From assembly GCA_030445775.1 (NCBI GenBank), contig JASUTC010000001.1, positions 28,914 to 92,913 on the forward strand: a stretch of 64,000 bases of DNA. Reading direction: 5' to 3'. Positions 10,462 to 24,510 of this stretch are shown here, in pieces. A program made the position numbers and the translations under genes. The notes beneath the pieces were generated by a model. That model saw only the letters and a list, made by a program, of their open reading frames with translations, was not told the DNA's origin and searched no databases. The first letter of the stretch is position 1. The number at the start of each line of letters is the position of its first letter. This DNA is from Thermotogaceae bacterium (GTDB lineage: Bacteria > Thermotogota > Thermotogae > MWEM01).

Positions 10462-11451
10462 TTATTTGCTCAGTAATTGATCAAATTCAGCTGTAGCTTC
10501 CGGATTCATTTGTTTACCCTTTTGTGCATACTCTTCTGCCTTTTCTCGATTTTCATCTTTCAAATAGGCTTCAACAATGCCAAAATAGGGCTCTAACTGA
10601 TCAGGAGAAGCCTCCATGGCCTGTTTGAATCCATTAATTGAAGCTTTCATATTACCCATGGGACTGTAAAGGTTTAACCACCCCTTGGATAAATTCAGAA
10701 AATAATCATTAGGATCCAATGTTAATCCCTTATTGATAGATGTTTGGGCCTCCATGGCCATTTTCATTTGCTCCAATGGAGAAACTGTATCAATCAATCT
10801 CAATGTGGTATAAGCATAAAGACCTAAAAGCCGAGGGTTTTCCGGCTGCTTTTGAAGAAGACCCTGAATTTCCGGTCTTGACCCCTTTATGGTTTCCAAG
10901 GTGGGGTCATCCATCAACATTCTGGAAAGACTCTCCGCTGATCTTTGGATGATTTGTTGTTCATCTAAGGATTCCTTTTTTTCAATTACCACTTGCTGCT
11001 CTTTCATGGGAGCGGGCTTCATTTCCTTTTCAGTAACACCACTTTGAACTGATCCAGGTGCAAGGGAAAAATATTGCATGACCATTTGAAGTATTTGTGG
11101 AAGTACATTTACAATTTGTTTCAAAACAGGTTCCTTATTGCTGAGAGATCTGATTTCAATGTCATCACCACTGACGATGATGATGCTGTAAGGAATCAAA
11201 TTGACACTTCCTGATGTTCCTGCAGCCATTAGAGGGTCTCCACCACCACCTCCAATAAAGAACGTATTCACTTCAAAAACTGGTATCAGGTACTTGTCTC
11301 CAAGTTCAACAGGATCACCTATGGCCATGTTTGGTGCGATTGACTCGAAACCAGATCCCAAGATCATCCCCGGGACATCAGATACTCCTTGTGCATACAA
11401 AACGCTCGTTAACAAAAACAGCACTGCAATAATCAAACAACACTTTTTCAT
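10462..11451 (-). CDS. Secreted protein with an N-terminal GerW/YtfJ-like glycine-rich domain and a C-terminal TPR-like region
   Basis: A signal peptide MKKCCLIIAVLFLLTSVLYA is followed by IPVFEVNTFFIGGGGGDPLMAAGTSGSVNLIPYSIIIV, which resembles the Spore_YtfJ/GerW motif. The C-terminus is helical and TPR-like. Confidence 0.45.
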   Translation of the reverse strand: MKKCCLIIAVLFLLTSVLYAQGVSDVPGMILGSGFESIAPNMAIGDPVELGDKYLIPVFEVNTFFIGGGGGDPLMAAGTSGSVNLIPYSIIIVSGDDIEIRSLSNKEPVLKQIVNVLPQILQMVMQYFSLAPGSVQSGVTEKEMKPAPMKEQQVVIEKKESLDEQQIIQRSAESLSRMLMDDPTLETIKGSRPEIQGLLQKQPENPRLLGLYAYTTLRLIDTVSPLEQMKMAMEAQTSINKGLTLDPNDYFLNLSKGWLNLYSPMGNMKASINGFKQAMEASPDQLEPYFGIVEAYLKDENREKAEEYAQKGKQMNPEATAEFDQLLSK

Positions 11452-11605
11452 TTTATACCTCCTTTTTTACCATTACCGCTGTAGTCAATTATACAACAAA
11501 TCAAATTCAATTTTTCAAACACATAATCCCAGCAATCAGGTGTTGTGGGTTTAGCTTGTATTTTTTCGAGTTTTGCAAACGATTATATTACTTATTTATT
11601 AAATG

Positions 11606-11640
11606 AAAAAAAGGGGGGCTTTCGCCACCCCTTTATTTTA
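11606..11640. terminator. Hairpin terminator (ggggggc-tttc-gccacccc) flanked by A/T runs
   Basis: The element reads aaaaaggggggctttcgccacccctttatttt, ending 2 nt before the stop of the YjfB-like gene. Confidence 0.55.
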
Positions 11641-11641
11641 T

Positions 11642-11833
11642 TCATACCCGTACATCAAGTACCGCTCCGAGACCATCCTGTTTTGGCAATGTCTGTAACA
11701 GCTGTGTATTTTCCTCAAGAGCCTGGTCCATAACCTGTTTCATGACCGCGGTACCCATTTCAGCCGATATTTGCAGATTTTTCAGCTGCATGGCTGACTG
11801 GGTAATTCCGGATGATATACCATCTACACCCAT
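11642..11833 (-). CDS. YjfB-family putative motility protein (63 aa)
   Basis: The protein ends ...AVMKQVMDQALEENTQLLQTLPKQDGLGAVLDVRV, matching the YjfB_motility pattern. A GGAGCG RBS precedes the ATG. Confidence 0.55.
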   Translation of the reverse strand: MGVDGISSGITQSAMQLKNLQISAEMGTAVMKQVMDQALEENTQLLQTLPKQDGLGAVLDVRV

Positions 11834-11968
11834 TTAACCACGCTCCTTCATTAAAGAATACAAATAATTATCGACGAAATAAAGTCAAACTTAATTACCT
11901 ATGTTCCTCTTTGGCAAATTTCACTGTTAATGGTAAAATATATTAATAACTATAAGTGAGGCTTACTC

Positions 11969-13474
11969 ATGTCCGACAAAATCGTTATAATCGATGGATA
12001 TATAGATGAACCTGCTCAATTTGGCGTCCCTCCTTATATTTCACCAACTTGTCGTTATGCCTTTGGTTGCTATATGTTCTATGGAGTTACTCCTGAATAT
12101 TATACGATTGATCAAATTAGAGAGCATGACCTTTGGAATTATCTAAATGGTTTTGATCATCTTATTTTAATCGGTGGTGTTAGTGTCCCCGGTAAATACA
12201 TCGGGGGTAATCCCGTAAAATACACCGAACTGGAAAAAATTTCTCAATATGCACCACATCCCCTGAAAATCTATAAAGGGCCATATACTTTGGGTTATAC
12301 TAGTAAAGGGGGACGAGATGCTCATGTTATCGAACATCTGAATAATTTATACGATTGCCCTGTAACAGGTAATTTGGAAACCTTTTTATTTTACTTGTTA
12401 AAAGGTGATCTTCCTGCTGAATCTATTGAGAAAGACGAGGCTGTTTTTGAAAAGATCACTCAATATGGCGCACCAATCATTAGACAACACCCGAATTATC
12501 CCGATCTAATCTGTGAAATTGAAGTCTCTACAGGATGTGAAAGAAATAGCCACTGTTCCTTTTGTACAGAACCACTTTTTTACGGTAAATATCACGAAAG
12601 ATTGCCTGAAAAAATTCTCAAAGAAATTGAGGGACTTGTCAAAAATGGGGCTAGATACTTCAGGTTGGGGCGTGCAGCAAATATATTGGCATATGGATAT
12701 ACAAAAAACGATAAAGATGGTTTATTTTTAGATCAATTATATTCCGGTATTAGACAAAAATGCCCAAAATTAGGTATGCTTCACACTGATAATGCAAATC
12801 CTGGATTCATACAAAACAATCCGATGATTTCAGAAAAAGCTATAAAAATAATTTCACAGTACAACACCTCCGGTGACAGTCTATCCTTTGGTGTAGAAAG
12901 TTTTGACGAAACAGTCATTAAACAGAACAATTTGGCTATAGATCCCGATGGCGTTATCTCCGCTTGTGAAACAGTTAATCGCGTCGGTGGTTTTTTAAAA
13001 GATGGTGTACCGGCCTTGCTACCAGGGATTAACCTTTTGTTTGGATTAATAGGGGAAAGCACCAAAACATTTGACATCAATTTTAAGTACTTAAAGAAAC
13101 TAATGGAAAAAGGCATTTTATTGCGTAGAATAAATATAAGAAAAGCTATGGTTTTTCCCGAAACTCCACTTTACCGTTATATTCAAAAACATAAAATTAA
13201 GTCTCATTCACGTGAATTTAGAAAATTCAAAGAAAAAGTCAGAGAAGAAATCGACAGACCAATGCTTAAAAAAGTCTATCCCTCTGGAACAATAATAAAA
13301 GATGTGATTGTGGAATACAATAAAGGAAACATATCCTTCGGGAGAAAACTTGGTACTTATGCAATTTTAATCGGTATTAGAAAAAAAATAAAACCGGGAA
13401 CAAAATTAAATGTCAGAATAACCGAACACGGTTACAGATCAGTTACTGGTGTAATTGAAAATGAGGATGGATAA
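11969..13474 (+). CDS. Large radical-SAM family Fe-S oxidoreductase with an atypical Cx5Cx2C cluster motif (501 aa)
   Basis: The cluster motif reads GCERNSHCSFC, giving Cx5Cx2C spacing, and an aromatic-rich region follows. An N-terminal ~180-aa domain (KIVIIDGYIDEP...) resembles the front domain of class-B/COG1032-type rSAM enzymes. Confidence 0.6.
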   Translation: MSDKIVIIDGYIDEPAQFGVPPYISPTCRYAFGCYMFYGVTPEYYTIDQIREHDLWNYLNGFDHLILIGGVSVPGKYIGGNPVKYTELEKISQYAPHPLKIYKGPYTLGYTSKGGRDAHVIEHLNNLYDCPVTGNLETFLFYLLKGDLPAESIEKDEAVFEKITQYGAPIIRQHPNYPDLICEIEVSTGCERNSHCSFCTEPLFYGKYHERLPEKILKEIEGLVKNGARYFRLGRAANILAYGYTKNDKDGLFLDQLYSGIRQKCPKLGMLHTDNANPGFIQNNPMISEKAIKIISQYNTSGDSLSFGVESFDETVIKQNNLAIDPDGVISACETVNRVGGFLKDGVPALLPGINLLFGLIGESTKTFDINFKYLKKLMEKGILLRRINIRKAMVFPETPLYRYIQKHKIKSHSREFRKFKEKVREEIDRPMLKKVYPSGTIIKDVIVEYNKGNISFGRKLGTYAILIGIRKKIKPGTKLNVRITEHGYRSVTGVIENEDG

Positions 13475-13476
13475 TT

Positions 13477-14541
13477 ATGGCCGAAGAAATTATCAATGAA
13501 TTTGATCTTTTTGCAGTTCACATTAAAATTAACTGTATTTCACTTGATGAAGTGATTGTTGGCTATTTTTTCGGTAAAAAAAACGAAAATTTGGAGTACA
13601 CGTTCTTTAATTTTCCCGCCTCTGTAAGACAAAGATTACCCGATATCAACAATAACCCACACCTTAATTTTAAAGAAGAACTTAATGAAATATCAAATAA
13701 ATTGATTCCCGACCATCCAGAAATCGTTGAGAGAAGCGCTAAATTGATGGATTACATTAATATTCAATTTAGAAAAATCGGAGGATTAGAACGTTTTTCA
13801 AAGAAGGTTTCCTATTTATTCGAATTGGACGAAAAAGACGAAATCAGTATGGAGTTACTGGGATTATTTGATAACTGGGTCGAAAAGAAGGAATTGCAAT
13901 ACACTGCCGAGCTCTTTTCTGCTGAAGATTATACAAAACAAGTAATGGAAAGTGCAGAATTCTATCCCGAGATGGAAAATATCACCAATTATCTTGATTT
14001 AACGAAAATGATTGAATTTTACCCTCTAATAGATCCAATTCAAGGAATCTCTATTGATGCCTTTGAGGTTGGCATGTCTTTAAGAATCACAATCCTTTCA
14101 TTTCCGGATGAGGAAACAGAAAAACTTATCAAAGATCATTATCAAGATCATATCGACCCGAAAGAAGGTTATTTAAAAACCATTGAAGCTGACATTGTAT
14201 CAAAGGAGTTACTTTCAGGAAAAAATGACACTTATGTACTTGTAAAGGTTCACTTATGTGAGGATATCTATGCTTATTCAATCATTCTCAAATCTTTAAA
14301 ACTCAATCGAAACCAGATTCTCAAACGTAATCTATTACCACCCATACAAGAGGAAGATGAAAGTATCCCCTCAGGTGAAGAAAAGATTTTCACGGGGAGA
14401 ATAAAAAAGGAAACCAAAGTATTTTCAACGCTGAAAGAAAAAGCGAAATTTAAAATAACAGATTTGATATTAGTTTTAATAATTGTGGGAGGGAGCATCG
14501 CATTAACCGCGTTATTAATTGACTTAATATCAAAAAGATGA
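13477..14541 (+). CDS. Uncharacterised protein, C-terminally membrane-anchored (paralogue A of a two-member family in this window)
   Basis: 354 aa with a single C-terminal TM helix LILVLIIVGGSIALTALLIDLI. It shares motifs with the 16976-18007 product: GYFFGK/GFFFGK, FxNF, FYP(L/I)(I/V)DP and EGY. Confidence 0.6.
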   Translation: MAEEIINEFDLFAVHIKINCISLDEVIVGYFFGKKNENLEYTFFNFPASVRQRLPDINNNPHLNFKEELNEISNKLIPDHPEIVERSAKLMDYINIQFRKIGGLERFSKKVSYLFELDEKDEISMELLGLFDNWVEKKELQYTAELFSAEDYTKQVMESAEFYPEMENITNYLDLTKMIEFYPLIDPIQGISIDAFEVGMSLRITILSFPDEETEKLIKDHYQDHIDPKEGYLKTIEADIVSKELLSGKNDTYVLVKVHLCEDIYAYSIILKSLKLNRNQILKRNLLPPIQEEDESIPSGEEKIFTGRIKKETKVFSTLKEKAKFKITDLILVLIIVGGSIALTALLIDLISKR

Positions 14542-15488
14542 AACAAATGGGAAGTGTAAGCATGAACAATATCTTTGGAATCGTTCCCTCAAGAAGGTTG
14601 GGAAGATCATTAGGGGTAAGTACCATTCCAATCAGTACATGTAGTTATTCATGCGTTTATTGCCAGCTTGGCAGGACCAGAAACATGACTATCAGACGTC
14701 ATAATTTCTTTAAAATCGATGATCTTGTTATGCAGTTGAAAGGTTATCAGGATAAAAAAGACAAATTTGATGTGATCACCCTTGTAGGAGAAGGTGAACC
14801 AACCTTATACGAACAAACAGGGGAGCTGATAAAAAGAATAAAACAGCTTTTTGATAAACCGATAGCACTCATTACAAATGGTTCCTTATTTTTTCTGGAA
14901 GAAGTTCGACAGGATTGTATGCATGCAGATATTGTCATGCCAACATTGGATGCATGGGATGATGATAGTTTCAAAACTTTAAACAGGCCGTTTAAAACCA
15001 TTACCTTTGAAAAGATGTACAATGGATTAGTGGATTTCAGAGGAGAATATAAAGGTGACTTTTATCTGGAAATCATGTGTGTAAAGGGAATCACTGACCA
15101 AGGTAATAACATGGCGTTGTTAACCGAAAAAATCAACAAATTAAATCCTGACAAGGTATTTGTCAATACACCCGTCAGACCACCTGCGGAAAAATGGGTT
15201 GAAAGATGTACTAAAGAATTTATAGAGAAATTACAAAAACAATTTAAAACAAACACAGATTTAGAAATACCTGATACAAATTTATACAGTCATAATCTTG
15301 ACCTTTACCAGGCGATAATCGAAATCATCAAACGCCATCCACTTGATCAATCCAGTATAGAAAAGTTCTGTAAAAACCGGGAAGAAGATCCTGAACAGAT
15401 GATTAAAAGATTATCAGAAGATAAAAATGTAGAAAGAATTAAGTATGAGAATAAGGTGTTTTATAGAATAAAATCAAAAAAGAGGTAA
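14538..15488 (+). CDS. Radical-SAM enzyme (PflA/QueE-like small class)
   Basis: The canonical cluster motif CSYSCVYC (CxxxCxxC) is present, along with the glycine-rich GEGEPTL and ITNGSL blocks. The start overlaps the previous gene by 4 nt. Confidence 0.7.
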   Translation: MKQMGSVSMNNIFGIVPSRRLGRSLGVSTIPISTCSYSCVYCQLGRTRNMTIRRHNFFKIDDLVMQLKGYQDKKDKFDVITLVGEGEPTLYEQTGELIKRIKQLFDKPIALITNGSLFFLEEVRQDCMHADIVMPTLDAWDDDSFKTLNRPFKTITFEKMYNGLVDFRGEYKGDFYLEIMCVKGITDQGNNMALLTEKINKLNPDKVFVNTPVRPPAEKWVERCTKEFIEKLQKQFKTNTDLEIPDTNLYSHNLDLYQAIIEIIKRHPLDQSSIEKFCKNREEDPEQMIKRLSEDKNVERIKYENKVFYRIKSKKR

Positions 15489-15489
15489 A

Positions 15490-16845
15490 TCAATGAAGGT
15501 TTTCCACCACATTCTTCAACCAAGACCCCTTTTTATACCGTTTGATCAGAACAAAGAATTTTGTCGTTTCTTCAACCATACACAAAGAATAAACGACTGG
15601 AAAAGGCCATTTTAAGACAAGACCTGCAATAGCTGTTACTGGAATACCAATAAGCCAAAGACAACCGGCCTCAACATAAAAGGAAAATTTAGTATCGCCT
15701 CCAGCCCTCAAGATTCCTACTATAAATAAACCGTTGAGGATTTTTATCGGGGAATAAAGCATGGACAACCTTAGTAGAAGGATGGCAAGTTTTTTTACTT
15801 CCTCACTCACTGAAAAAAGATTAACAAATTGAGGGGCAAAAACAATCATAGGAGTTACGAAAAGGACAACTAAAAAAAGATCAAGATAAATGATCTTCTT
15901 TGAAATATCTTTTGCTTTCTTAAAAGAAGATTTGCCCAATTCTTGTCCTATAATTACTGCGGCAGCATTCGACAATGCCATTAATACCGCAAATGAAAAA
16001 CGCTCTATACTGTTCATGATCCTGTTAGCAGCTAAAAGACTTGTTCCCATATAACTGTAGATGATGGTATACATGGAAAAACCTGTAGACCAAAACAATT
16101 CGTTTAATACGGTTGGGGTTGTATATTTCATGAAGCGTTTAAAAAAAGATTTAGATAAACTTTTAAAATGCACAATATGCACTCTTCCTGGATATTTCTT
16201 CCCGTAGATAATGCATAAAATCAACACCATTTCAAATATTCTGGACAATAATGTACCAATACCGGCTCCCTCGATTCCTAATTTCGGAAACCCGAAATTA
16301 CCAAATATCAGTGAGTAATTAAGAAGAACATTTAAACCGATTGCAATCATACTGACCATCATTGGAATAACGGCTTTTTCTGTGTTTCTTAAGACAAAGG
16401 CATAGGTCATGGTAATCCCGAAAGTAATAAAGCTAAAACTGATGGCGGATAAATACTTTGTTCCTTCCCTGATAACGGCTTGGTCTGGAGAAAATATCCT
16501 TAGAGTATTTTCAGGAAAGAAAAAGGCCAGTACAAAAAAAACAACTGAGAAAATCAGGGAACAGGAAATCATTAAAGCGGTCGTTCGAGAAATATTAAAT
16601 TCCTGCTTTGTCCCCCAAAATTGTGCAATAAAGATAGAACCACCGGAAACAAGTCCAAACATGACTACGTTGAATATAAAGAAAAATTGGTTAGATAAAC
16701 CGACTGCGGATATGGAAACTTCCCCAAGTTGCCCGATCATTAACATATCCACAAAGTTCATACTGCTTAAAATGATTTGTTGAATTGCTATCGGTAATGC
16801 CACTTTAAAGAGTCTTCTATAAACATTCATGCTGGATTTTAACAC
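15490..16845 (-). CDS. MATE-family multidrug/oligosaccharide efflux transporter
   Basis: 451 aa with about 12 TM helices. The topology and length fit the MATE fold. The gene is convergent with the rSAM gene and their ends are 2 nt apart. Confidence 0.65.
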   Translation of the reverse strand: MLKSSMNVYRRLFKVALPIAIQQIILSSMNFVDMLMIGQLGEVSISAVGLSNQFFFIFNVVMFGLVSGGSIFIAQFWGTKQEFNISRTTALMISCSLIFSVVFFVLAFFFPENTLRIFSPDQAVIREGTKYLSAISFSFITFGITMTYAFVLRNTEKAVIPMMVSMIAIGLNVLLNYSLIFGNFGFPKLGIEGAGIGTLLSRIFEMVLILCIIYGKKYPGRVHIVHFKSLSKSFFKRFMKYTTPTVLNELFWSTGFSMYTIIYSYMGTSLLAANRIMNSIERFSFAVLMALSNAAAVIIGQELGKSSFKKAKDISKKIIYLDLFLVVLFVTPMIVFAPQFVNLFSVSEEVKKLAILLLRLSMLYSPIKILNGLFIVGILRAGGDTKFSFYVEAGCLWLIGIPVTAIAGLVLKWPFPVVYSLCMVEETTKFFVLIKRYKKGSWLKNVVENLH

Positions 16846-16975
16846 AAAAAAAGGAATATAATAAAAAGGTTATGTTATTTGTTCGTAAACAAAAATAGTT
16901 TCAAACATGTGCATCAATAAAGTTCCTGCTCTTCATGATATAATTATGAATAAGCTGATATTTCGGTGAAAAGGT

Positions 16976-18007
16976 GTGTCAATGGAGTTTGATTTTTTTT
17001 CAGTTAAAGTATATGCGGAAAGTCAGTCATCAGACGAAATCATTTTAGGTTTTTTCTTTGGCAAAGTGGAAGGACGTTTGGAATTCCAATTTATCAATTT
17101 TGCCAGAAGGTTTAAAGATTTGGCAAAAATAAATCTCAAAGAAGATCTTAACGATTTTAAAAAGGACCTTAACCAGATTTATAGAAAACTTATTGCCAGA
17201 AGTGGAGACATCATTTCAAAAACGAATGATTTTTCCAATTATCTAAAATCTTATATCAATAAAAACGGCGGAAGACTCACTTTCAGCAATAAACTCAGTA
17301 CCATTATTGAAAATAAAGATACAGAAGCGGTAAGATCATTACTCAGGGAACTGTTTGATGAATGGACCAGTGATGTAAAAATCAGATTTGACTGGGGTTG
17401 TTCAACCTATAATGAGATGAGTTTGGAAGAGTCTTCGAAAACTGAACAATCTTTAGACATTCAAAGTGCGATTGAAAAGACAAAAGACAGAAAAGATCTT
17501 TTGGATATGGCGGATTTTTATCCAATCGTTGATCCCATGGAGGGTAAACCTGTGGCAAGTCTTAAGGTTGGTGACTCAATCTATCTAACCGTTGTTAATT
17601 TTAACGATGAAGGCGAAGAACAGAGGCTCGTTAACAGCTATCCAGATAAATTTGATGAAAATGGGAAAAACATTAAACCTTTTGAAGGTTATATTACCGC
17701 TATGGAATATTGTTCAGCAGAAAAAGGGACTGTATTATTGAAGGTACAAATTGATGAATGGTTTCTGGCAAAGGCAATTATTATGTCCAATATTCGAATA
17801 ATGCAGACAAACCGACGAAAAAATTTGTTAAAACAGAATGCAATGGACCAAGATAATATAACAGACACTTTAGTCCAAAAATCCGAGAAAAAAAGTGAAC
17901 AAGAAGATGGCGTTTCCAGAGAAACGTTAATTGACCGTCTTATTATCTCATCCTTAATCGCTCTCATTGTCATCACTATTTTAATCATTATATTCATTTT
18001 TCTATGA
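16976..18007 (+). CDS. Uncharacterised protein, C-terminally membrane-anchored (paralogue B)
   Basis: About 30% identity along its full length with the 13477-14541 product. The C-terminal TM helix is LIISSLIALIVITILIIIFIFL. The ATG at 16982 has an aagg RBS. The stop lies 1 nt before the MetH-activation-domain gene. Confidence 0.6.
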   Translation: MSMEFDFFSVKVYAESQSSDEIILGFFFGKVEGRLEFQFINFARRFKDLAKINLKEDLNDFKKDLNQIYRKLIARSGDIISKTNDFSNYLKSYINKNGGRLTFSNKLSTIIENKDTEAVRSLLRELFDEWTSDVKIRFDWGCSTYNEMSLEESSKTEQSLDIQSAIEKTKDRKDLLDMADFYPIVDPMEGKPVASLKVGDSIYLTVVNFNDEGEEQRLVNSYPDKFDENGKNIKPFEGYITAMEYCSAEKGTVLLKVQIDEWFLAKAIIMSNIRIMQTNRRKNLLKQNAMDQDNITDTLVQKSEKKSEQEDGVSRETLIDRLIISSLIALIVITILIIIFIFL

Positions 18008-18008
18008 G

Positions 18009-18578
18009 GTGAGCAAATTGGCGAATATTTTTTATCCTGACAAGGCCGATTATCTGCCTTCGAAAAAGCAATACTTGTTAAGAGCGGGTTTTAAAGGCAT
18101 TCAAACCAAACTTGAACGTTCAATGCTAAACCTTACAAATGAGATCTATCTTGAAGCAATACCCTTGGTTGAAGCTCAAATCGACCATCTAACAATACCT
18201 GTTGAAAACGTTGGTAAAATAACAATACCTGAGAAATTCCAAGGGGTAAGTCAAATAACGTACTTTATTTCTACCATTGGAAGAAGGATTGAAGAACGTA
18301 TTGAAAGATACAGTGATTCGGGGGAAACAACAAAAGCCACTTTATTAGATGCATGGGCTTCAGAATCATTAGAGGAATTAAACGAAAATTTTGATAAACA
18401 ACTTCGAAAAAAGCATCATAAAGGCACTATGCGTTTTTCTCCGGGTTATTCAGATTTAAACCTGAGTGAAAACAAAAAAATCATTGATTTGCTTCAATGT
18501 CGTATTGTTAGCGTACACCCAATTTCAGCTATGCTTTCACCACAAAAAAGCACGGTTTGTATGATAGGATGGTATTAG
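18009..18578 (+). CDS. Stand-alone methionine synthase reactivation (AdoMet-binding) domain protein
   Basis: The RFSPGYSDL motif is typical of the MetH activation domain. Its ~190-aa size fits the split MetH arrangement known in Thermotoga. Confidence 0.6.
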   Translation: MSKLANIFYPDKADYLPSKKQYLLRAGFKGIQTKLERSMLNLTNEIYLEAIPLVEAQIDHLTIPVENVGKITIPEKFQGVSQITYFISTIGRRIEERIERYSDSGETTKATLLDAWASESLEELNENFDKQLRKKHHKGTMRFSPGYSDLNLSENKKIIDLLQCRIVSVHPISAMLSPQKSTVCMIGWY

Positions 18579-18609
18579 CAAATACCACTATTAACATAAA
18601 GGGGTTTAT

Positions 18610-19509
18610 ATGAAAGTAATCAAAAAAGAAAACCAAACAGAATTTATCAGTGATCTTTTAGATTCCTGTGAAAATACCGTTTCTTTTGAAGTTTATCCGC
18701 CTAAGAAAGGACAAAAAAAGCAATTTGAAATTATCAAAAACACAATCAATCGTTTAAAGGACCTCCATCCTGATTTTATTAGCGTCACTTACGGTCCGGG
18801 TGGAACAAATAAGGGCAAAGCGGTGGATATTTCAGAATACATTAAACAACACGATGTCAAGCCATTGGCACACCTAACATCTGTGGGTTACACAAAGGAA
18901 GATATTCCACCCCTTTTAGAGAAATTGCATTCAATAGGAGTTAAAAACATATTAGCTTTAAGAGGTGATGTCCCTCAAAATGTAAACTTTCCTCACGGCG
19001 CTTGGTGTGACTTTCGATATGCCAAAGACTTGATCAGTATGATAAAAAAGGACGGTAGATTTTGTATAGGAGCTGCTGCCTATCCTGAGGGACATCCTGA
19101 TTGTAAAGAATTAAGAATTAGCATCAATCATATGAAAGAAAAAATCGAAGCCGGAGCAGATTTTTTTATTTCACAGATGTTTTTCGACAATCAAATCTAT
19201 TTTGACTTTCTTGACCGGGTTAGAGGTGCAGGCATCCATAAACCTATAATACCCGGTATTATGCCTGTTTTAAGGGCAAAGCAAATCAATAAAATTCTCA
19301 GTTTATCTGATGCCTATGTTCCTAAAAAACTGGCTGAGGCCATCAATCTTTACAGTGATAACCCACAATCCATGGAAGCTTACGGAATTGAGTATGCATT
19401 GAGACAAATTGACGGATTAAAGCGCCAGGGCATCCGAAGATTTCATATTTATTCAATGAATCGTTGGGAGCAAGTTACAAAAATTGTCAAATTGGCTCAG
19501 TTAAAATAG
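18610..19509 (+). CDS. metF: 5,10-methylenetetrahydrofolate reductase
   Basis: 299 aa MTHFR TIM-barrel fold with the motifs ISVTYGPGG and ALRGD. Confidence 0.8.
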   Translation: MKVIKKENQTEFISDLLDSCENTVSFEVYPPKKGQKKQFEIIKNTINRLKDLHPDFISVTYGPGGTNKGKAVDISEYIKQHDVKPLAHLTSVGYTKEDIPPLLEKLHSIGVKNILALRGDVPQNVNFPHGAWCDFRYAKDLISMIKKDGRFCIGAAAYPEGHPDCKELRISINHMKEKIEAGADFFISQMFFDNQIYFDFLDRVRGAGIHKPIIPGIMPVLRAKQINKILSLSDAYVPKKLAEAINLYSDNPQSMEAYGIEYALRQIDGLKRQGIRRFHIYSMNRWEQVTKIVKLAQLK

Positions 19510-19520
19510 GGGGAATTTCA

Positions 19521-21902
19521 ATGACGAGAATTGAATTTTTAAAACGATTGGAGGATGGTCCTTTATACTTGGATGGATCATACGGCACTCAGTTTTTCAA
19601 AGCCGGTTATACTGACATTCCCGGAGAAATGCTGAATTTAAAAGCTCCTGAAGTAGTATTTGAATTGCAAAAAAAATACATTCAAGCAGGTAGCAATATT
19701 TTACTTACCAATACTTTTAGTGCTAATCGTATTAAACTTGCCTCATTAAAAATTGAAGAATACATTGATGAAATTAATAAACAAGGGGTTTTATTGGCCA
19801 AAAAGGCAGCTGGTAACAAGGCTTTTGTTTTTGGTGATATTTCCTCGACCGGGGAATTTCCACAACCGGTTGGGGATTTATCTTCAAGAAAGATCTATGA
19901 TGCCTTTTACGAGCAAGCTAAAATATTGGATCAATTTGGTGTTGACGGATTTATTGTTGAAACGATATCTGACTTAAAGGAATTAAAATTGGCAATTCTT
20001 GCGATTCGTGAGATTAACAACGAAAAGCCTTTAATCGCTCAAATGACCTTTGAAAAATCCGATCACCACCTGCAATCTCCAAGAAGTGTTACAGGAACTC
20101 CCGTTGAAGTCTTTGGAAATCTTATGAATGATTTGGACGTAGATGTGGTAGGAATTAACTGTACTTTAGGTCCAAAGGAAATCTACTCTGTCTTCGAAAA
20201 ACTTTCGCAATACACCGAAAAACCACTGAGTGTTGAACCAAATGCCGGTGATCCTGATCTCGTTAATGGTCGCCTGATGTATCGTATGACCCCTGATGAA
20301 TTTAGTGTTTACGCTGCAGATATGGTTTTTCAAGGTGCTTCCGTCATTGGGGGTTGTTGCGGAACAGGCCCCGAGCACATTGAAGCATTAAAAATTCTTG
20401 TGGATAAAAATCCTGATTTCGTTTATCACGAAGGTAAAAATAGAGCACGAGGCACCTATCAATTGAAGGATTGCATCAGTTTTCTCTCATCAAGGACTCA
20501 ATTGATTCCAGTTGAACCCTTTGCCCCGATAGGAGAAAGAATTAATCCAGCTTCAAAGAAGAGGTTTCAAGATGAAATAGAAAATTATGATTTTAAACGG
20601 ATATTAGATTTGGCAAAAGAACAAGAACTGGAAGGGGCAAAATTATTAGATATTAATTTTGGCATAGAAAAAATTTTGTCTCCCAAGCACTTTAAACAAG
20701 TTGTTATTGAATTGGATAAAATTTCCTCACTTCCATTATCATTCGATATTCAAACAAATAAATATTTAGAAGAGGCGCTTTTTGAATACCCGGCAAGGCC
20801 TCTCATAAATTCTGCCAGGGTAACGGAAAAAAGTCTCAACCGCAAAGCATCACTTTTAAAAAGACATGGGGGCATGTTGATCCTCCTTGCCATGGGAAAA
20901 GGAATACCTGAAACAGCTGAAGGTCGTTTTCATCAGATCATGGAAGGTATCAAAGAACTTGAACACCTTTCCATTTCCAGATTGAGAATTCTGGCTGATC
21001 CTTTGGTACTTTCCCTTGGCGCCGATAATGATCCAGCAGTTACTCTAAAAACCGTTGAAATGCTTCACAAAGAGGGCATAAAAACAACGATGGGCTTATC
21101 GAATCTTAGTTTTGGAATGCCAGAGCGTAAAGCAATTAACGCGGCTTTTCTTGCACAATCAATTAACAGGGGACTTGATAGTGCCATAATGAACACAGGT
21201 GACAGACAACTATTCTCAATTATGAAAGGATCATTAAAATTAAGAGGGCAAGATTTGATAGAGCCGCAACAGGTCGATACAAAAAATCCATTTGTCCGTT
21301 CTCTTTTAAATGGCGAAATTGAAAACCTTCATCATTTAATTGATGAAGAACTGAAATCAAAAAGTCCCTTAGAAATAAGTCAGCAAGTATTGGCAAAAGC
21401 CATGAATGAAATTGGTGAATTATATGCTGAAAAAATAATTTATCTTCCCCATTTAATACTGGCAGCTGATACCTCAAAACCAATATTCGAGCGCTTGAAT
21501 GAACTTTCTGATACAGCCATTCAATTTGTAGGAAGGGTTGTTTTAGCAACTGTTGAAGGGGATGTACACGATATTGGTAAAAAGATAGTAGGAACTGTGT
21601 TATCCGGTGGGGGTTTTGAAGTAATAGACATTGGAAAAGATAAAATTTCTAAAGAAATATTGGATGCCGTGAAGACTTACCAACCGGATATAGTGGGTTT
21701 ATCTGCTATGATGACAACGACGGTGGGGAAGGTAAAAGAGGTATCTGATCTTTTAAAACAAGAGGGAATTGATGTAAAGATAATTTCCGGTGGCGCTTCT
21801 ATGAATAAACGACTGGCTAAAGAATTTGGTTGCCAAGGGTATTCTGATGATGCTTCAGGAGCTTTAAAACTATGTAGAGAATTATTGAAAATCGAATCAT
21901 AA
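19521..21902 (+). CDS. metH: Cobalamin-dependent methionine synthase (Hcy-binding, pterin-binding and B12-binding domains; no activation domain)
   Basis: GGCCGTGPEH marks the Zn/Hcy site and GDVHDIGK is the DxHxxG B12 motif. The likely start is MTRIEFL at 19521, which has a ggggga RBS. The track ORF starts at 19464. Confidence 0.8.
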   Translation: MTRIEFLKRLEDGPLYLDGSYGTQFFKAGYTDIPGEMLNLKAPEVVFELQKKYIQAGSNILLTNTFSANRIKLASLKIEEYIDEINKQGVLLAKKAAGNKAFVFGDISSTGEFPQPVGDLSSRKIYDAFYEQAKILDQFGVDGFIVETISDLKELKLAILAIREINNEKPLIAQMTFEKSDHHLQSPRSVTGTPVEVFGNLMNDLDVDVVGINCTLGPKEIYSVFEKLSQYTEKPLSVEPNAGDPDLVNGRLMYRMTPDEFSVYAADMVFQGASVIGGCCGTGPEHIEALKILVDKNPDFVYHEGKNRARGTYQLKDCISFLSSRTQLIPVEPFAPIGERINPASKKRFQDEIENYDFKRILDLAKEQELEGAKLLDINFGIEKILSPKHFKQVVIELDKISSLPLSFDIQTNKYLEEALFEYPARPLINSARVTEKSLNRKASLLKRHGGMLILLAMGKGIPETAEGRFHQIMEGIKELEHLSISRLRILADPLVLSLGADNDPAVTLKTVEMLHKEGIKTTMGLSNLSFGMPERKAINAAFLAQSINRGLDSAIMNTGDRQLFSIMKGSLKLRGQDLIEPQQVDTKNPFVRSLLNGEIENLHHLIDEELKSKSPLEISQQVLAKAMNEIGELYAEKIIYLPHLILAADTSKPIFERLNELSDTAIQFVGRVVLATVEGDVHDIGKKIVGTVLSGGGFEVIDIGKDKISKEILDAVKTYQPDIVGLSAMMTTTVGKVKEVSDLLKQEGIDVKIISGGASMNKRLAKEFGCQGYSDDASGALKLCRELLKIES

Positions 21903-22023
21903 GTCGATAATATTGTAGAAACTCATGCGTTTCCTGATGATGTTATAATGATGAGGTGTGGAATAACAAAAAAATTATTTTGATTCTTGGTTATTCCGTA
22001 TAGATTGAATATGAGGCGATTTA

Positions 22024-22497
22024 ATGAGGGTCAATCCTCCAAATAGTTCTATCGACAAAGATAAAAAAGCTGAAAAAGCAAAGAAGAAAAGATTAAAAGG
22101 GTCCTCTTCAAAAACAGAAAACACAGATACTTGGTCAGGCTTTATTGATATGTTAGGAGAGGTAAAACTCGATCAGATTGAGGAGGAGGCAAAAAAATAT
22201 CTTCAATACGTATTAACTGCAGGAAATAGATTTTCCAGATCTCCTACACACAAGCATTTTCAAGGTTATCGTGATGCGTTAAAAAATTTTTTGCGGTTTA
22301 TAGAAAAAGGGCTTTATAAAGTAAAAGAAGATATGGGAATGGATGTTGATTATCCCAAATTGTACATGGTGGCAGAAAAAGTGGATGAGAAGATACACCA
22401 TCTTGCCGGTCTTTTGATGGAGAATGAAAAAAACACCATAAATTTTGCAGGGAAGGTTGAAGAGATTAACGGTCTCGTTTTAGATTTATACAGATGA
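22024..22497 (+). CDS. YaaR/DUF327-family protein
   Basis: The C-terminus ...EEINGLVLDLYR is YaaR-like and the gene keeps its position upstream of holB, as in Firmicutes. Confidence 0.6.
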   Translation: MRVNPPNSSIDKDKKAEKAKKKRLKGSSSKTENTDTWSGFIDMLGEVKLDQIEEEAKKYLQYVLTAGNRFSRSPTHKHFQGYRDALKNFLRFIEKGLYKVKEDMGMDVDYPKLYMVAEKVDEKIHHLAGLLMENEKNTINFAGKVEEINGLVLDLYR

Positions 22498-23630
22498 TAA
22501 ACTCAAAGATTATTGTAGATAGTGTAAAAGAAATATACAAACCGGAGTTAAAAAAGCTCTTTTCATTGGCTAATTCCAATCTGATCCCCGCAATTTGCTT
22601 AAGTGGAACCGATGAAAAACTATTAAGATTTATAATGGAGTTGTTTTTAATTGAATATGAGAAAAAGACTTATAATGAGATTTTTAACAGTAATGATTTC
22701 TATGAAATCGAAGTGAATTCCGAAATTATAAAAATTGATGACATCCGAAAACTGATTAAGTTTTCCACACTGAAAAAAGAAACCCTTAAGCATAAATATA
22801 CCGTTATCAAAAATATAGAAAAAGCCAATATATATGCACAAAATTCTCTTTTAAAGGTCATTGAAGAACCCGGAAATGATACGTTGTTTCTTTGCTCCAC
22901 TTGTTTTTATACCACTTTGTTAAACACGATAAGAAGCCGTTTGTTTCGGATTAATATTCCAAATAAACCTTTAAAGGATTTAGAACCGTATTTTTGTGAT
23001 GAAATCAGGTGGTTGGCGAATATTTCTTTTGATGTTTTACTTGAGTTTTCCCAATTAACAAAAGCGGAGCAAAAACAATTAATTGCCTCTCTCAGAAATA
23101 AAAGTTTAAATGAAATGACTGAGGATTTCATCAGAAGTTGTGGTGAATATGAATTGGAATTTGAAAACGGCATTTGTTTAAAAAACAAGGCATTGAAAAG
23201 ATTATACGCATTAATATTCTTTGAAAGATTGTTAAAGGATATCTTGTTTCACTCATCAGAAGAAGTCCAGCAGCTCTTGCTTTCTTTTAAATCAATTATC
23301 AATAAAAAAAGTCTGTATAAGGGGAGCAACGAAAATAATTCAACTACCGGTTTTAATAATGCCTTTTTCAAAGAGCTTTTCTCATTAACCGAAAAAATCC
23401 TATACATCATGCTGAACTTTCAAGAGGGGGCTTTATTAGGCTCTTTGAGTTATACCCAACTGACAACTCTTTGTCTAAAAAAAAACTTGGTGATGGAAAA
23501 AAATAAGATGCAAAGGTATATTGCTTTTTTAGAGAAAATTAAAAACTCTACACAAATATCGTTAAACAGTGAACTGCTGATGCTTAATTACCTCATATTG
23601 ACACAGAAAATATTTAAAGAAAGCGAGTGA
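22494..23630 (+). CDS. holB: DNA polymerase III delta-prime subunit-like clamp-loader protein with a degenerate P-loop
   Basis: The block NIYAQNSLLKVIEEPGNDTLFLCST...LNTIRSRL matches the delta-prime box. No intact GxxGxGK motif is present. Confidence 0.6.
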   Translation: MINSKIIVDSVKEIYKPELKKLFSLANSNLIPAICLSGTDEKLLRFIMELFLIEYEKKTYNEIFNSNDFYEIEVNSEIIKIDDIRKLIKFSTLKKETLKHKYTVIKNIEKANIYAQNSLLKVIEEPGNDTLFLCSTCFYTTLLNTIRSRLFRINIPNKPLKDLEPYFCDEIRWLANISFDVLLEFSQLTKAEQKQLIASLRNKSLNEMTEDFIRSCGEYELEFENGICLKNKALKRLYALIFFERLLKDILFHSSEEVQQLLLSFKSIINKKSLYKGSNENNSTTGFNNAFFKELFSLTEKILYIMLNFQEGALLGSLSYTQLTTLCLKKNLVMEKNKMQRYIAFLEKIKNSTQISLNSELLMLNYLILTQKIFKESE

Positions 23631-23634
23631 AAAA

Positions 23635-24510
23635 ATGGGAATGATTGCAAAGATTTACGAGGTGGAATTCCTTGAATTTGGAAAAAAATATTATTTCTCT
23701 TATGAAGGGCAATTAGAAAGAGGAGCAAAGGTTTTAGGTATGAGTTTTTTTGGACTTGATGTGGGAAAAGTTATAAAAGGGCCTGAAGAAGTCGATATAG
23801 AAAAGATTAATTTCGAAGTCAAGCCTCTCCTAAGACCTTTAACAAAAGAAGATCTCGAAACGGAACAAAAAAACAAAATAGATTCGGACGAAGCTTTTGA
23901 TATCTGCCAAGATAAAATTCATACCCTCGAATTGCCCATGAAATTGTTAAAGGCTCAGTATATGTTTGATCGTTCTAAACTCCTTTTCTACTTTAGTGCA
24001 GAAGGGAGGGTTGATTTTAGAGAATTGGTAAAAGAACTAGCACATTGTTTTAAAACACGTATAGAACTTAGACAAGTTGGGGTGCGAGATGAATTAAAGT
24101 TTATCGGAAGCATCGGCATGTGTGGACAACCCGTTTGTTGCAGAAGATTCAAACGAGAATTCGATAAAATAACCCTTAGAGATGCAAAAAGGCAGCAAAT
24201 GATGATTAATCCTGCAAAGATATCCGGACAATGTAAACGCCTACTATGTTGTTTAAAATATGAATTAGATAACTATGAAGAGATATTGGCTGATATTCCA
24301 GACCCGGGAAGTGTTATTCAATACAACGAAGAGGTTTGTAAAGTCAATGGATGCAATATATTCAAGGAAATTGTTTCCGCTTCAACAGATGATGGTAACA
24401 AGCGAGAGATTCTCTTTGACTATTTTAGGGAAAGAAAGGATTCAATTATTTCAAAACCGATATCATCTGATGATGACCTCGAAGAATTGCCTGATGAAGA
24501 AGAGGAATGA
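23635..24510 (+). CDS. PSP1 C-terminal domain protein (YaaT-like)
   Basis: The PSP1 core is RVDFRELVKELA...TRIELRQVGVRDE. The protein has an acidic tail. Confidence 0.75.
   Translation: MGMIAKIYEVEFLEFGKKYYFSYEGQLERGAKVLGMSFFGLDVGKVIKGPEEVDIEKINFEVKPLLRPLTKEDLETEQKNKIDSDEAFDICQDKIHTLELPMKLLKAQYMFDRSKLLFYFSAEGRVDFRELVKELAHCFKTRIELRQVGVRDELKFIGSIGMCGQPVCCRRFKREFDKITLRDAKRQQMMINPAKISGQCKRLLCCLKYELDNYEEILADIPDPGSVIQYNEEVCKVNGCNIFKEIVSASTDDGNKREILFDYFRERKDSIISKPISSDDDLEELPDEEEE

Follow-up and report, generated by a model that had tools for sequence, protein, structure and literature searches.

Two paralogous genes of the DUF4899 family

We analyzed a stretch of 64,000 nucleotides from the genome of a Thermotogaceae bacterium (contig JASUTC010000001.1 of assembly GCA_030445775.1; the whole stretch is called the window below) and focused on two of its genes, here named A and B, whose products resemble each other from end to end. 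A lies between two genes for radical S-adenosylmethionine (radical-SAM) proteins, which we call rSAM1 and rSAM2, and B heads a series of genes that includes metF and metH (Table 1). A preliminary description of this DNA had presented the two products as an undescribed family with no recognised domain. Profile searches contradict this view, since A matched the Pfam entry PF16240 (DUF4899) with 140.2 bits (E = 1e-40, profile positions 2-272 of 283) and B matched it with 197.8 bits (E = 2.7e-58, profile positions 2-276 of 283), the gathering cutoff being 25 bits, and since relatives are named "DUF4899 domain-containing protein" by NCBI. DUF4899 was also the sole Pfam match in 23 of 23 diverse family members. 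From their sequences, A and B thus appear, with practical certainty, to be clear members of a catalogued family. This domain is hardly a well-known one, as DUF4899 is catalogued but comes without known function or literature. We found nothing published on DUF4899, PF16240, TM0241, or CTN_0445, and a search for TM0239, TM0240, TM0243, and TM0244 yielded the Rnf locus tags and nothing else; TM0241 is probably the Thermotoga maritima orthologue, as judged from gene order. NCBIfam, PADLOC, and PHROGs contained no match for A or B, and searches of the PDB by sequence found none for B alone and none for the family profile (best E = 0.063, to a designed helical protein).

Table 1. Genes and elements of the A and B loci, in coordinates of the window
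Feature	Positions	Strand	Description and basis
rSAM1	11969-13474	+	501 amino acids (aa), MiaB/RimO-like radical-SAM protein; Pfam Radical_SAM, weak MiaB/RimO/TIGR04013 matches
Paralogue A	13477-14541	+	DUF4899 protein, 354 aa; open reading frame (ORF)
Transmembrane (TM) anchor of A	14464-14520	+	Residues 330-348, LILVLIIVGGSIALTALLI; hydropathy
rSAM2	14538-15488	+	316 aa, radical-SAM protein, CxxxCxxC at residues 35-42; Pfam/NCBIfam scans
Extended -10 promoter-like element	16936-16944	+	TGATATAAT, 37 nt 5' of the B start; role inferred
Paralogue B	16982-18007	+	DUF4899 protein, 341 aa from ATG 16982; longest ORF from GTG 16976
TM anchor of B	17939-18004	+	Residues 320-341, LIISSLIALIVITILIIIFIFL; protein-terminal generic hydrophobic helix
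MetH reactivation (activation-domain) protein, stand-alone	18018-18578	+	TM0269 type; PDB 1j6r_A E = 1.8e-17, weak Pfam Met_synt_B12
MetF	18610-19509	+	Methylenetetrahydrofolate reductase; NCBIfam TIGR00676 E = 5e-85
MetH	19521-21902	+	Cobalamin-dependent methionine synthase, 793 aa, without activation domain; TIGR02082 and corrinoid-domain matches

A BLASTP alignment of A with B extended over 306 aa with 31% identity and 51% positives (E = 1e-40), a score far beyond chance, and the paralogy is therefore real. Two of the three sequence blocks by which the proteins had first been linked were truly aligned, namely, EFDLF..GYFFGK (A) with EFDFF..GFFFGK (B) and EFYPLIDPIQG (A) with DFYPIVDPMEG (B), and they are the most conserved motifs of the family. 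The third pairing, PKEGYLKTIEAD with PFEGYITAMEY, was misaligned by a chance "EGY" match about 6 residues out of register, the homologous pair being KTIEADIVSKE and KPFEGYITAME. The ORF described for B was present, but its proposed start, GTG 16976, should probably give way to ATG 16982, which is most likely the start codon because nearly all full-length orthologues are 341 aa long and open with M[ED]FDF.

Orthologues were located in 14 genome loci and 4 metagenome loci, and the nearest genomic relatives of the window were exclusively uncultured Thermotogota/Thermotogaceae metagenome-assembled genomes (MAGs), with at most 90% identity. Measured against the closest unsaturated orthologues, those of locus L009, the ratio of nonsynonymous to synonymous substitution rates (dN/dS) was 0.095 for A and 0.138 for B, and both genes are, by these values, under purifying selection. 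The reading of A and B as real, end-to-end related ORFs was thus borne out by the ORFs themselves, by the BLASTP score, and by dN/dS near 0.1. Spurious ORFs are ruled out by the Pfam matches, dozens of orthologues, these dN/dS values, and confident structure models; likewise, the PF16240 matches and the orthologues rule out a truly undescribed family without homologues elsewhere. We consider the probability of these two possibilities, taken jointly, to be negligible.

The distribution of the family was evaluated by scoring a profile built from 19 A- and B-type sequences against 1.84 billion representative proteins. The search gave 24 clusters, 16 of them below 1e-30, and the named members were all from Thermotogota (Thermotoga neapolitana, Thermosipho, Marinitoga litoralis, Tepiditoga spiralis, Geotoga petraea, Petrotoga, and many MAGs). 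One member carried the label of a "Bacteroidales" MAG, and the same protein was also present on a Thermotogota contig (L006). Judged from these sequences, the family is small, with members of about 320 to 356 aa, and among named members it was found only in Thermotogota. A 304-aa protein, P0058, encoded next to carB on a short, taxonomically unassigned metagenome contig (L067, 3522-4436), is a very divergent member (profile E = 4.9e-4) in which the ILDPxxG motif is retained along with the C-terminal TM helix. It may stand at the outer limit of DUF4899.

Architecture, motifs, and fold

A and B were modeled with AlphaFold2 (AF2) in independent runs that used 19 sequences for B and 45 sequences for A; the predicted local distance difference test score (pLDDT) was 79.3 for B and 78.8 for A. 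Both models showed the identical order of secondary-structure elements. A meander of three strands comes first and is followed by four or five helices, by a long fourth strand, and by a helical connector that was predicted poorly; then come a beta-rich domain (about 100 residues), a charged, disordered linker of 30 to 45 residues (approximately residues 281 to 320 in A), and the C-terminal TM helix. In the models, the body of about 280 aa consists of an N-terminal antiparallel sheet, against which four or five helices pack, and of a small beta-barrel-like C-terminal domain. The body is therefore mixed alpha/beta and not helical, as had been proposed from the sequence, while the acidic character that was proposed with it stood, the isoelectric points of the two paralogues being 4.9 and 5.0.

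The single C-terminal TM helix of the preliminary description was found by hydropathy as one segment and was modeled as a helix by AF2. It is the sole hydrophobic segment of each protein and occupies the extreme C terminus (A 323-353 and B 314-341, KD19 > 1.6); values above this level were confined to A 323-335+19 and B 314-323+19, and the N termini are polar. In an alignment of 23 diverse members, a C-terminal TM helix followed a variable linker in every aligned protein. Given that the large acidic N-terminal body comes without a signal peptide, we infer a cytoplasmic body with an N-in/C-out orientation and insertion into the membrane after translation.

Over 45 sequences, the invariant residues were W, P, D, P, G, E, and K, and most invariant positions are of a structural type (Gly, Pro, Trp). 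A and B both contain the family motifs, that is, the N-terminal GYFFGK hairpin, the invariant Trp, FYPxxDPxxG, and the invariant Glu and Lys of the beta domain. The invariant residues of the 45-sequence alignment include neither a Cys or His motif nor one for a cofactor or a nucleotide. A reading of GYFFGK as a Walker A motif was rejected, as its GxxxGK is one residue short of GxxxxGK[ST] and is followed by K/V, and as it sits in a beta-hairpin in both models; the Pfam and NCBIfam scans gave no NTPase family match for DUF4899 proteins. In B numbering, D184, E242, K254, and the F/Y pair at 179-180 all fall within the beta domain, and in the models this polar and aromatic cluster would fit a binding patch better than a catalytic center.

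Foldseek returned no match with E <= 0.001, either in the PDB with both models or in BFVD. The best PDB match, 5zr6_A, had an E of 7.8e-3 and a probability of 0.95 with a TMt of 0.21 over 97 columns and was not reproduced with model A; small barrels of BFVD reached TMt values of 0.5 to 0.72, at E >= 0.028. A fold like that of major histocompatibility complex (MHC) class I, which recurred among the Foldseek matches, was dismissed for both models (TM-scores of 0.09 to 0.15, root mean square deviation of 14 to 20 Å, probability <= 0.12).

Duplication in one uncultured clade and divergence of the anchors

A and B were found together in one uncultured clade of Thermotogota, in each of its 10 genomes or MAGs. 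No second DUF4899 copy was seen in other Thermotogota, where the named clusters numbered one per genus and whole genomes were not scanned. The idea of a lineage-specific duplication, already put forward in the preliminary description, is supported by these counts. In a neighbor-joining tree, B grouped with MAG forms that occur as a single copy, including one that has kept its link to glgDC, and A formed a separate, long-branched clade. The presence of both copies in all ten clade genomes and the respective placements of A and B in the tree indicate that the duplication is older than the radiation of the clade, and B is the more ancestral-like copy.

The anchors have diverged as well. Within the A clade, the GG of the anchor is invariant and a conserved juxtamembrane segment, LKEKAKFKFxD, stands just before it, so that the consensus reads LKEKAKFKFxD-LxLxLIIxGGSIAL...DLxSK[KR]. 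Conservation of the TM and juxtamembrane region of the A clade (0.63) equals that of the globular domains, and the TM region of the B clade reaches 0.44. This pattern suggests that A gained a specific intramembrane partner or contact.

Locus of A

A follows rSAM1 with a gap of 2 nt and overlaps rSAM2 by 4 nt (ATGA), confirming the position between two radical-SAM genes that had been noted before. The order rSAM1-A-rSAM2 was conserved in 14 of 14 loci with an A orthologue, down to 43% identity. rSAM1 combines a radical-SAM core and a TRAM-like C terminus with a distinctive, very conserved N-terminal domain (IIDGYIDEPAQFGVPPYISP) that replaces UPF0004. Its full-length homologues (38 to 48% identity) occur on metagenome contigs of 25 to 58% GC and make up a widespread, uncharacterized radical-SAM family. 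More than 25 of these homologues had no DUF4899 gene, no rSAM2, and no conserved downstream gene, which excludes that rSAM1 always travels with DUF4899. Nor is rSAM2 a LipS2 lipoyl synthase, as it gave no match to NF053743 (cutoff, 270 bits) and only E values of 0.002 to 0.008 to LipS2 of Thermotoga and Marinitoga. On the minus strand, divergent from rSAM1, a gene at 10462-11451 encodes a protein of 329 aa that has a YtfJ-like domain, a hydrophobic, signal-like segment at its N terminus, and TPR repeats at its C terminus. The gene is followed by an ABC ATPase/permease pair, and this trio is syntenic with rSAM1-A-rSAM2 in several MAGs.

Locus of B and the split methionine synthase genes

B was followed by the MetH reactivation gene and metF in 11 of 11 B loci, the window included (down to 43% identity), and the order continued with metH-DUF327-holB-PSP1 wherever the contig reached far enough. 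In the window, DUF327, holB (DNA polymerase III delta'), and PSP1 occupy 22024-24510 after metH, so that B heads a long string of codirectional genes; the names holB and PSP1 are our own reading of the sequences and not a family-library result. The match of MetH to TIGR02082 (E = 1e-111) covered profile positions 42-616 of 1182.

The spacing between B and the reactivation gene is tight, as previously described, but the 1-nt spacer assumed a start at GTG 18009. TTG 18018 is most likely the start codon, because the ATG of orthologues aligns there, and the gap would then probably be 10 nt. The Shine-Dalgarno sequence of the reactivation gene, GAGGTGA (18006-18012), overlaps the stop codon of B, and the junction hints at tight coupling by termination and reinitiation. 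At two more distant orthologous loci (L007 9024-9040 and L008 9024-9040), no ATG, GTG, or TTG precedes the conserved N-terminal peptide of the reactivation protein; an ATT located 7 to 8 nt past an AGGAG that overlaps the TAG stop of B is the likely start codon there. A programmed frameshift fusing the two genes was rejected, as the frame of one gene relative to the other differs between loci, being +1 in the window but +2 in L007.

Upstream of B, the promoter-like element TGATATAAT was invariant in all 8 aligned orthologous upstream regions. A scan for consensus promoters and terminators over 11400-22600 yielded no more sites than in shuffled sequence. At gathering thresholds, Rfam gave no match in the entire window, be it to a SAM or B12 riboswitch or to another family, and at E <= 1 it gave none in 16700-17100; no riboswitch or leader was thus found 5' of B. 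The intergenic region between B and the divergent MatE gene contains a perfect palindrome, TTTGTTCGTAAACAAA (16878-16893), whose core was exact in the window and in 5 MatE-adjacent loci and variant in L005 and L006. It was missing in L007 and L008, where MatE is not the upstream neighbor, and also in L010, where it is. The palindrome may be an operator, either for the MatE efflux gene or for the promoter region that is shared.

The gaps at the rSAM1-A-rSAM2 and B-reactivation gene junctions ranged from -23 to +20 nt in all clade loci, in line with the operon-like spacing of both genes that was described earlier, and A and B are probably cotranscribed with their neighbors. On the complete 3.98-Mb chromosome OY763325.1, the A and B loci (L014 and L007) lie about 3 Mb apart, and two further MAGs carry them on different contigs, with another gene upstream of B. 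Both adjacencies have therefore outlasted rearrangements.

Gene context in single-copy lineages

We examined the context of DUF4899 in 12 lineages with a single copy. The glgD-glgC pair was immediately upstream in 8 of them (Thermotoga, Thermosipho, Marinitoga, Tepiditoga, Geotoga, Petrotoga, and two MAG lineages), with GlgC and GlgD named by NCBIfam and with gaps of 3 to 31 nt except in Petrotoga. Downstream, half of the lineages (6/12) had a poorly conserved protein of 87 to 103 aa with an N-terminal TM helix and then a LipS2-family lipoyl synthase (324 to 364 bits to NF053743, against its cutoff of 270). The genes rnfCDGEAB came directly after LipS2 in five of these six lineages, other genes being present there in Petrotoga. 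The remaining four single-copy lineages had none of these neighbors. The block LipS2-rnfCDGEAB was seen in Thermotoga (L015, 5602-14563) and in equivalent form in Marinitoga, Tepiditoga, Geotoga, and one MAG lineage (L019, L020, L063, and L065). With gaps of a few nucleotides, glgD-glgC-DUF4899-small membrane protein-LipS2-Rnf has the appearance of a conserved "super-operon" of glycogen, lipoate, and Rnf genes.

No met gene was located within 8 kb of DUF4899 in the Thermotoga loci (L015-L017), and glgC/glgD, LipS2, and Rnf were absent from the window. Because the single-copy contexts differ, because rSAM2 is not LipS2, and because rSAM1 homologues stand alone elsewhere, the met and rSAM1/2 linkages are innovations of this clade and not a property of the family. 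The functional tie to radical-SAM and met genes that the preliminary description had implied is accordingly clade specific, single-copy lineages having mostly glgDC/LipS2/Rnf or other neighbors.

Discussion

In the explanation that we favor, the acidic cytoplasmic body of DUF4899 proteins would be held at the inner face of the membrane by the flexible charged linker and the C-terminal TM helix, and a partner would dock at the conserved patch of the beta domain and be fixed at the membrane through the anchor. One uncultured clade of Thermotogota duplicated the gene. B stayed nearest to the single-copy forms, kept a generic anchor, and now heads B-metH-activation-metF-metH, and A diverged, acquired its conserved GG-containing TM and juxtamembrane segment, and now lies in rSAM1-A-rSAM2. 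We assign a probability of roughly 0.55 to this explanation as a whole, that is, to the DUF4899 paralogues with their architecture, tether role, and duplication history. Its functional part, according to which DUF4899 proteins are nonenzymatic, cytoplasm-facing membrane tethers or adaptors, is more tentative, and we hold it at somewhat less than even odds. We propose a nonenzymatic role because the proteins have no Cys, His, cofactor, or nucleotide motif and no other relatives in Pfam, NCBIfam, or the PDB, and because their C-terminal domain is weakly SH3/Tudor-like. Several points weigh against the proposal: the literature offers nothing on any DUF4899 member, the trio of invariant D, E, and K residues could serve catalysis or ligand binding, and the neighbors vary by lineage (glgDC/LipS2/Rnf; rSAM1/2 or met; none) so that no single partner is indicated, and the operon links may be incidental.

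The invariant trio is central to an alternative in which DUF4899 proteins would be enzymes, transporter accessories, or envelope factors of a kind not recognized so far, with D/E/K and the aromatics forming an active or ligand site and with incidental gene neighborhoods. The clustering of D184, E242, K254, and F/Y 179-180 in the beta domain, the strong purifying selection, and the heterogeneous contexts across lineages would all suit such a protein, but there is no likeness to an enzyme family by sequence or fold, and the mostly Gly, Pro, or Trp invariant positions are typical of structural constraint, so we regard it as unlikely. A role in glycogen metabolism is suggested by the most widely conserved linkage that we found, glgD-glgC directly upstream in 8 of 12 lineages. 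The ancestral partner would then be the ADP-glucose pyrophosphorylase GlgC/GlgD, for example, for membrane tethering or regulation of glycogen synthesis, and A and B would have come to their present places by secondary relocation in this clade, without functional meaning. However, the same block carries LipS2 and Rnf and is perhaps an inherited super-operon and not a functional unit; the linkage was lost in four lineages and in both paralogues, yet purifying selection persists; no carbohydrate-binding or GlgC-interacting domain appeared in the Pfam scans; and glgC is absent from the window. This role is, in our view, improbable.

The recurrence of DUF4899 beside three unrelated systems that depend on SAM or reductant inspires a further possibility, in which client-specific adaptors would bring SAM-dependent enzymes in need of low-potential electrons to the membrane beside Rnf, a source of reduced ferredoxin. 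In classical Thermotogota the candidate client would be LipS2; A would serve rSAM1/rSAM2 and B would serve the MetH reactivation protein, with the duplication producing client-specific adaptors. LipS2 was found in 6 of 12 single-copy contexts, with RnfCDGEAB next to it in 5 lineages; two radical-SAM genes flank A in all 14 A loci; and a TM0269-type gene directly follows B in all 11 B loci. LipS1 and LipS2 are radical-SAM lipoyl synthases (PMC9585515), and TM0269 is required for the reductive reactivation of the T. maritima MetH, TM0268, according to the mention of Huang 2007 in PMC10293825. On the other side, the pattern was recognized post hoc, the radical-SAM families concerned are mutually unrelated, and rSAM1 homologues elsewhere stand alone. 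Moreover, Thermosipho and three MAG lineages have DUF4899 without a radical-SAM or Rnf neighbor, the gene in Thermotoga is about 27 genes away from metH (a distance inferred from locus tags), and DUF4899 has no redox or Fe-S motif. We therefore consider such adaptors quite unlikely, and we are just as reserved about a fuller version, in which they would form a Thermotogota-specific class with a fold not seen in the PDB and A would use its conserved GG-containing TM helix to bind a membrane partner.

That the family is catalogued as Pfam DUF4899, and so named by NCBI, was already known and corrects the claim of a novel family. What is new is descriptive. DUF4899 is a tiny, single-phylum family of tail-anchored proteins that lack a sequence relative in the PDB and any significant Foldseek match; its conserved ancestral position is glgD-glgC-DUF4899-small TM protein-LipS2-Rnf; and it was duplicated in one uncultured clade, where one copy moved into a radical-SAM operon and the other came to head the split metH operon. 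If the proximity to SAM- or reductant-dependent enzymes and Rnf proved to be functional, for which the indications are circumstantial, it would represent a new organization of reductive activation at the membrane. A specialist would find nothing strongly surprising here; nonetheless, DUF4899 provides a concrete candidate gene for functional work in Thermotogota and a reasonable target for their cell biology.

Comparison with known systems

The closest counterparts of A and B are the DUF4899 members of cultured genera, such as ACM22621 (Thermotoga neapolitana), WP_205100399 (Marinitoga litoralis), and BBE31650 (Tepiditoga spiralis), with which they share the full profile, the motifs, the length, and the C-terminal TM anchor. 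The identity to these proteins is only 20 to 25%. Furthermore, there are two copies, A and B, which have diverged to 31% identity and lie in radical-SAM and met operons, whereas one cluster per cultured genus was seen, usually with the gene in the glgD-glgC...LipS2-Rnf block. In overall architecture, a soluble body and a single C-terminal TM helix, A and B resemble ElaB, YqjD, and YgaM of E. coli, which are C-tail-anchored inner-membrane proteins that have a soluble cytoplasmic domain and an extreme C-terminal TM helix and no signal peptide. They differ from these proteins in showing no sequence or domain similarity (DUF883 gave no match) and in having a body three times larger with a different alpha/beta fold.

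The C-terminal part of the body recalls SH3/Tudor-like barrels, as residues ~177-280 of B gave local Foldseek matches of about 90 to 100 columns to the C-terminal domain of MntR/DtxR (5zr6) and to the Tudor domain of UHRF2 (4tvr), and as small phage barrel proteins matched the beta domain of B locally with TMt values of 0.5 to 0.7. With no match at E <= 0.001, PDB TM-scores of 0.18 to 0.21, and no match for model A, this is a resemblance that does not establish membership. Finally, the met genes next to B are comparable to the split methionine synthase of T. maritima, TM0268 (MetH) and TM0269, since the window likewise contains a separate reactivation gene, whose product matches 1j6r, the structure of TM0269, and a MetH without an activation domain. 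The arrangements differ in that the reactivation gene is downstream of metH in T. maritima, whereas in the window it stands upstream of metF-metH, just after a DUF4899 gene.

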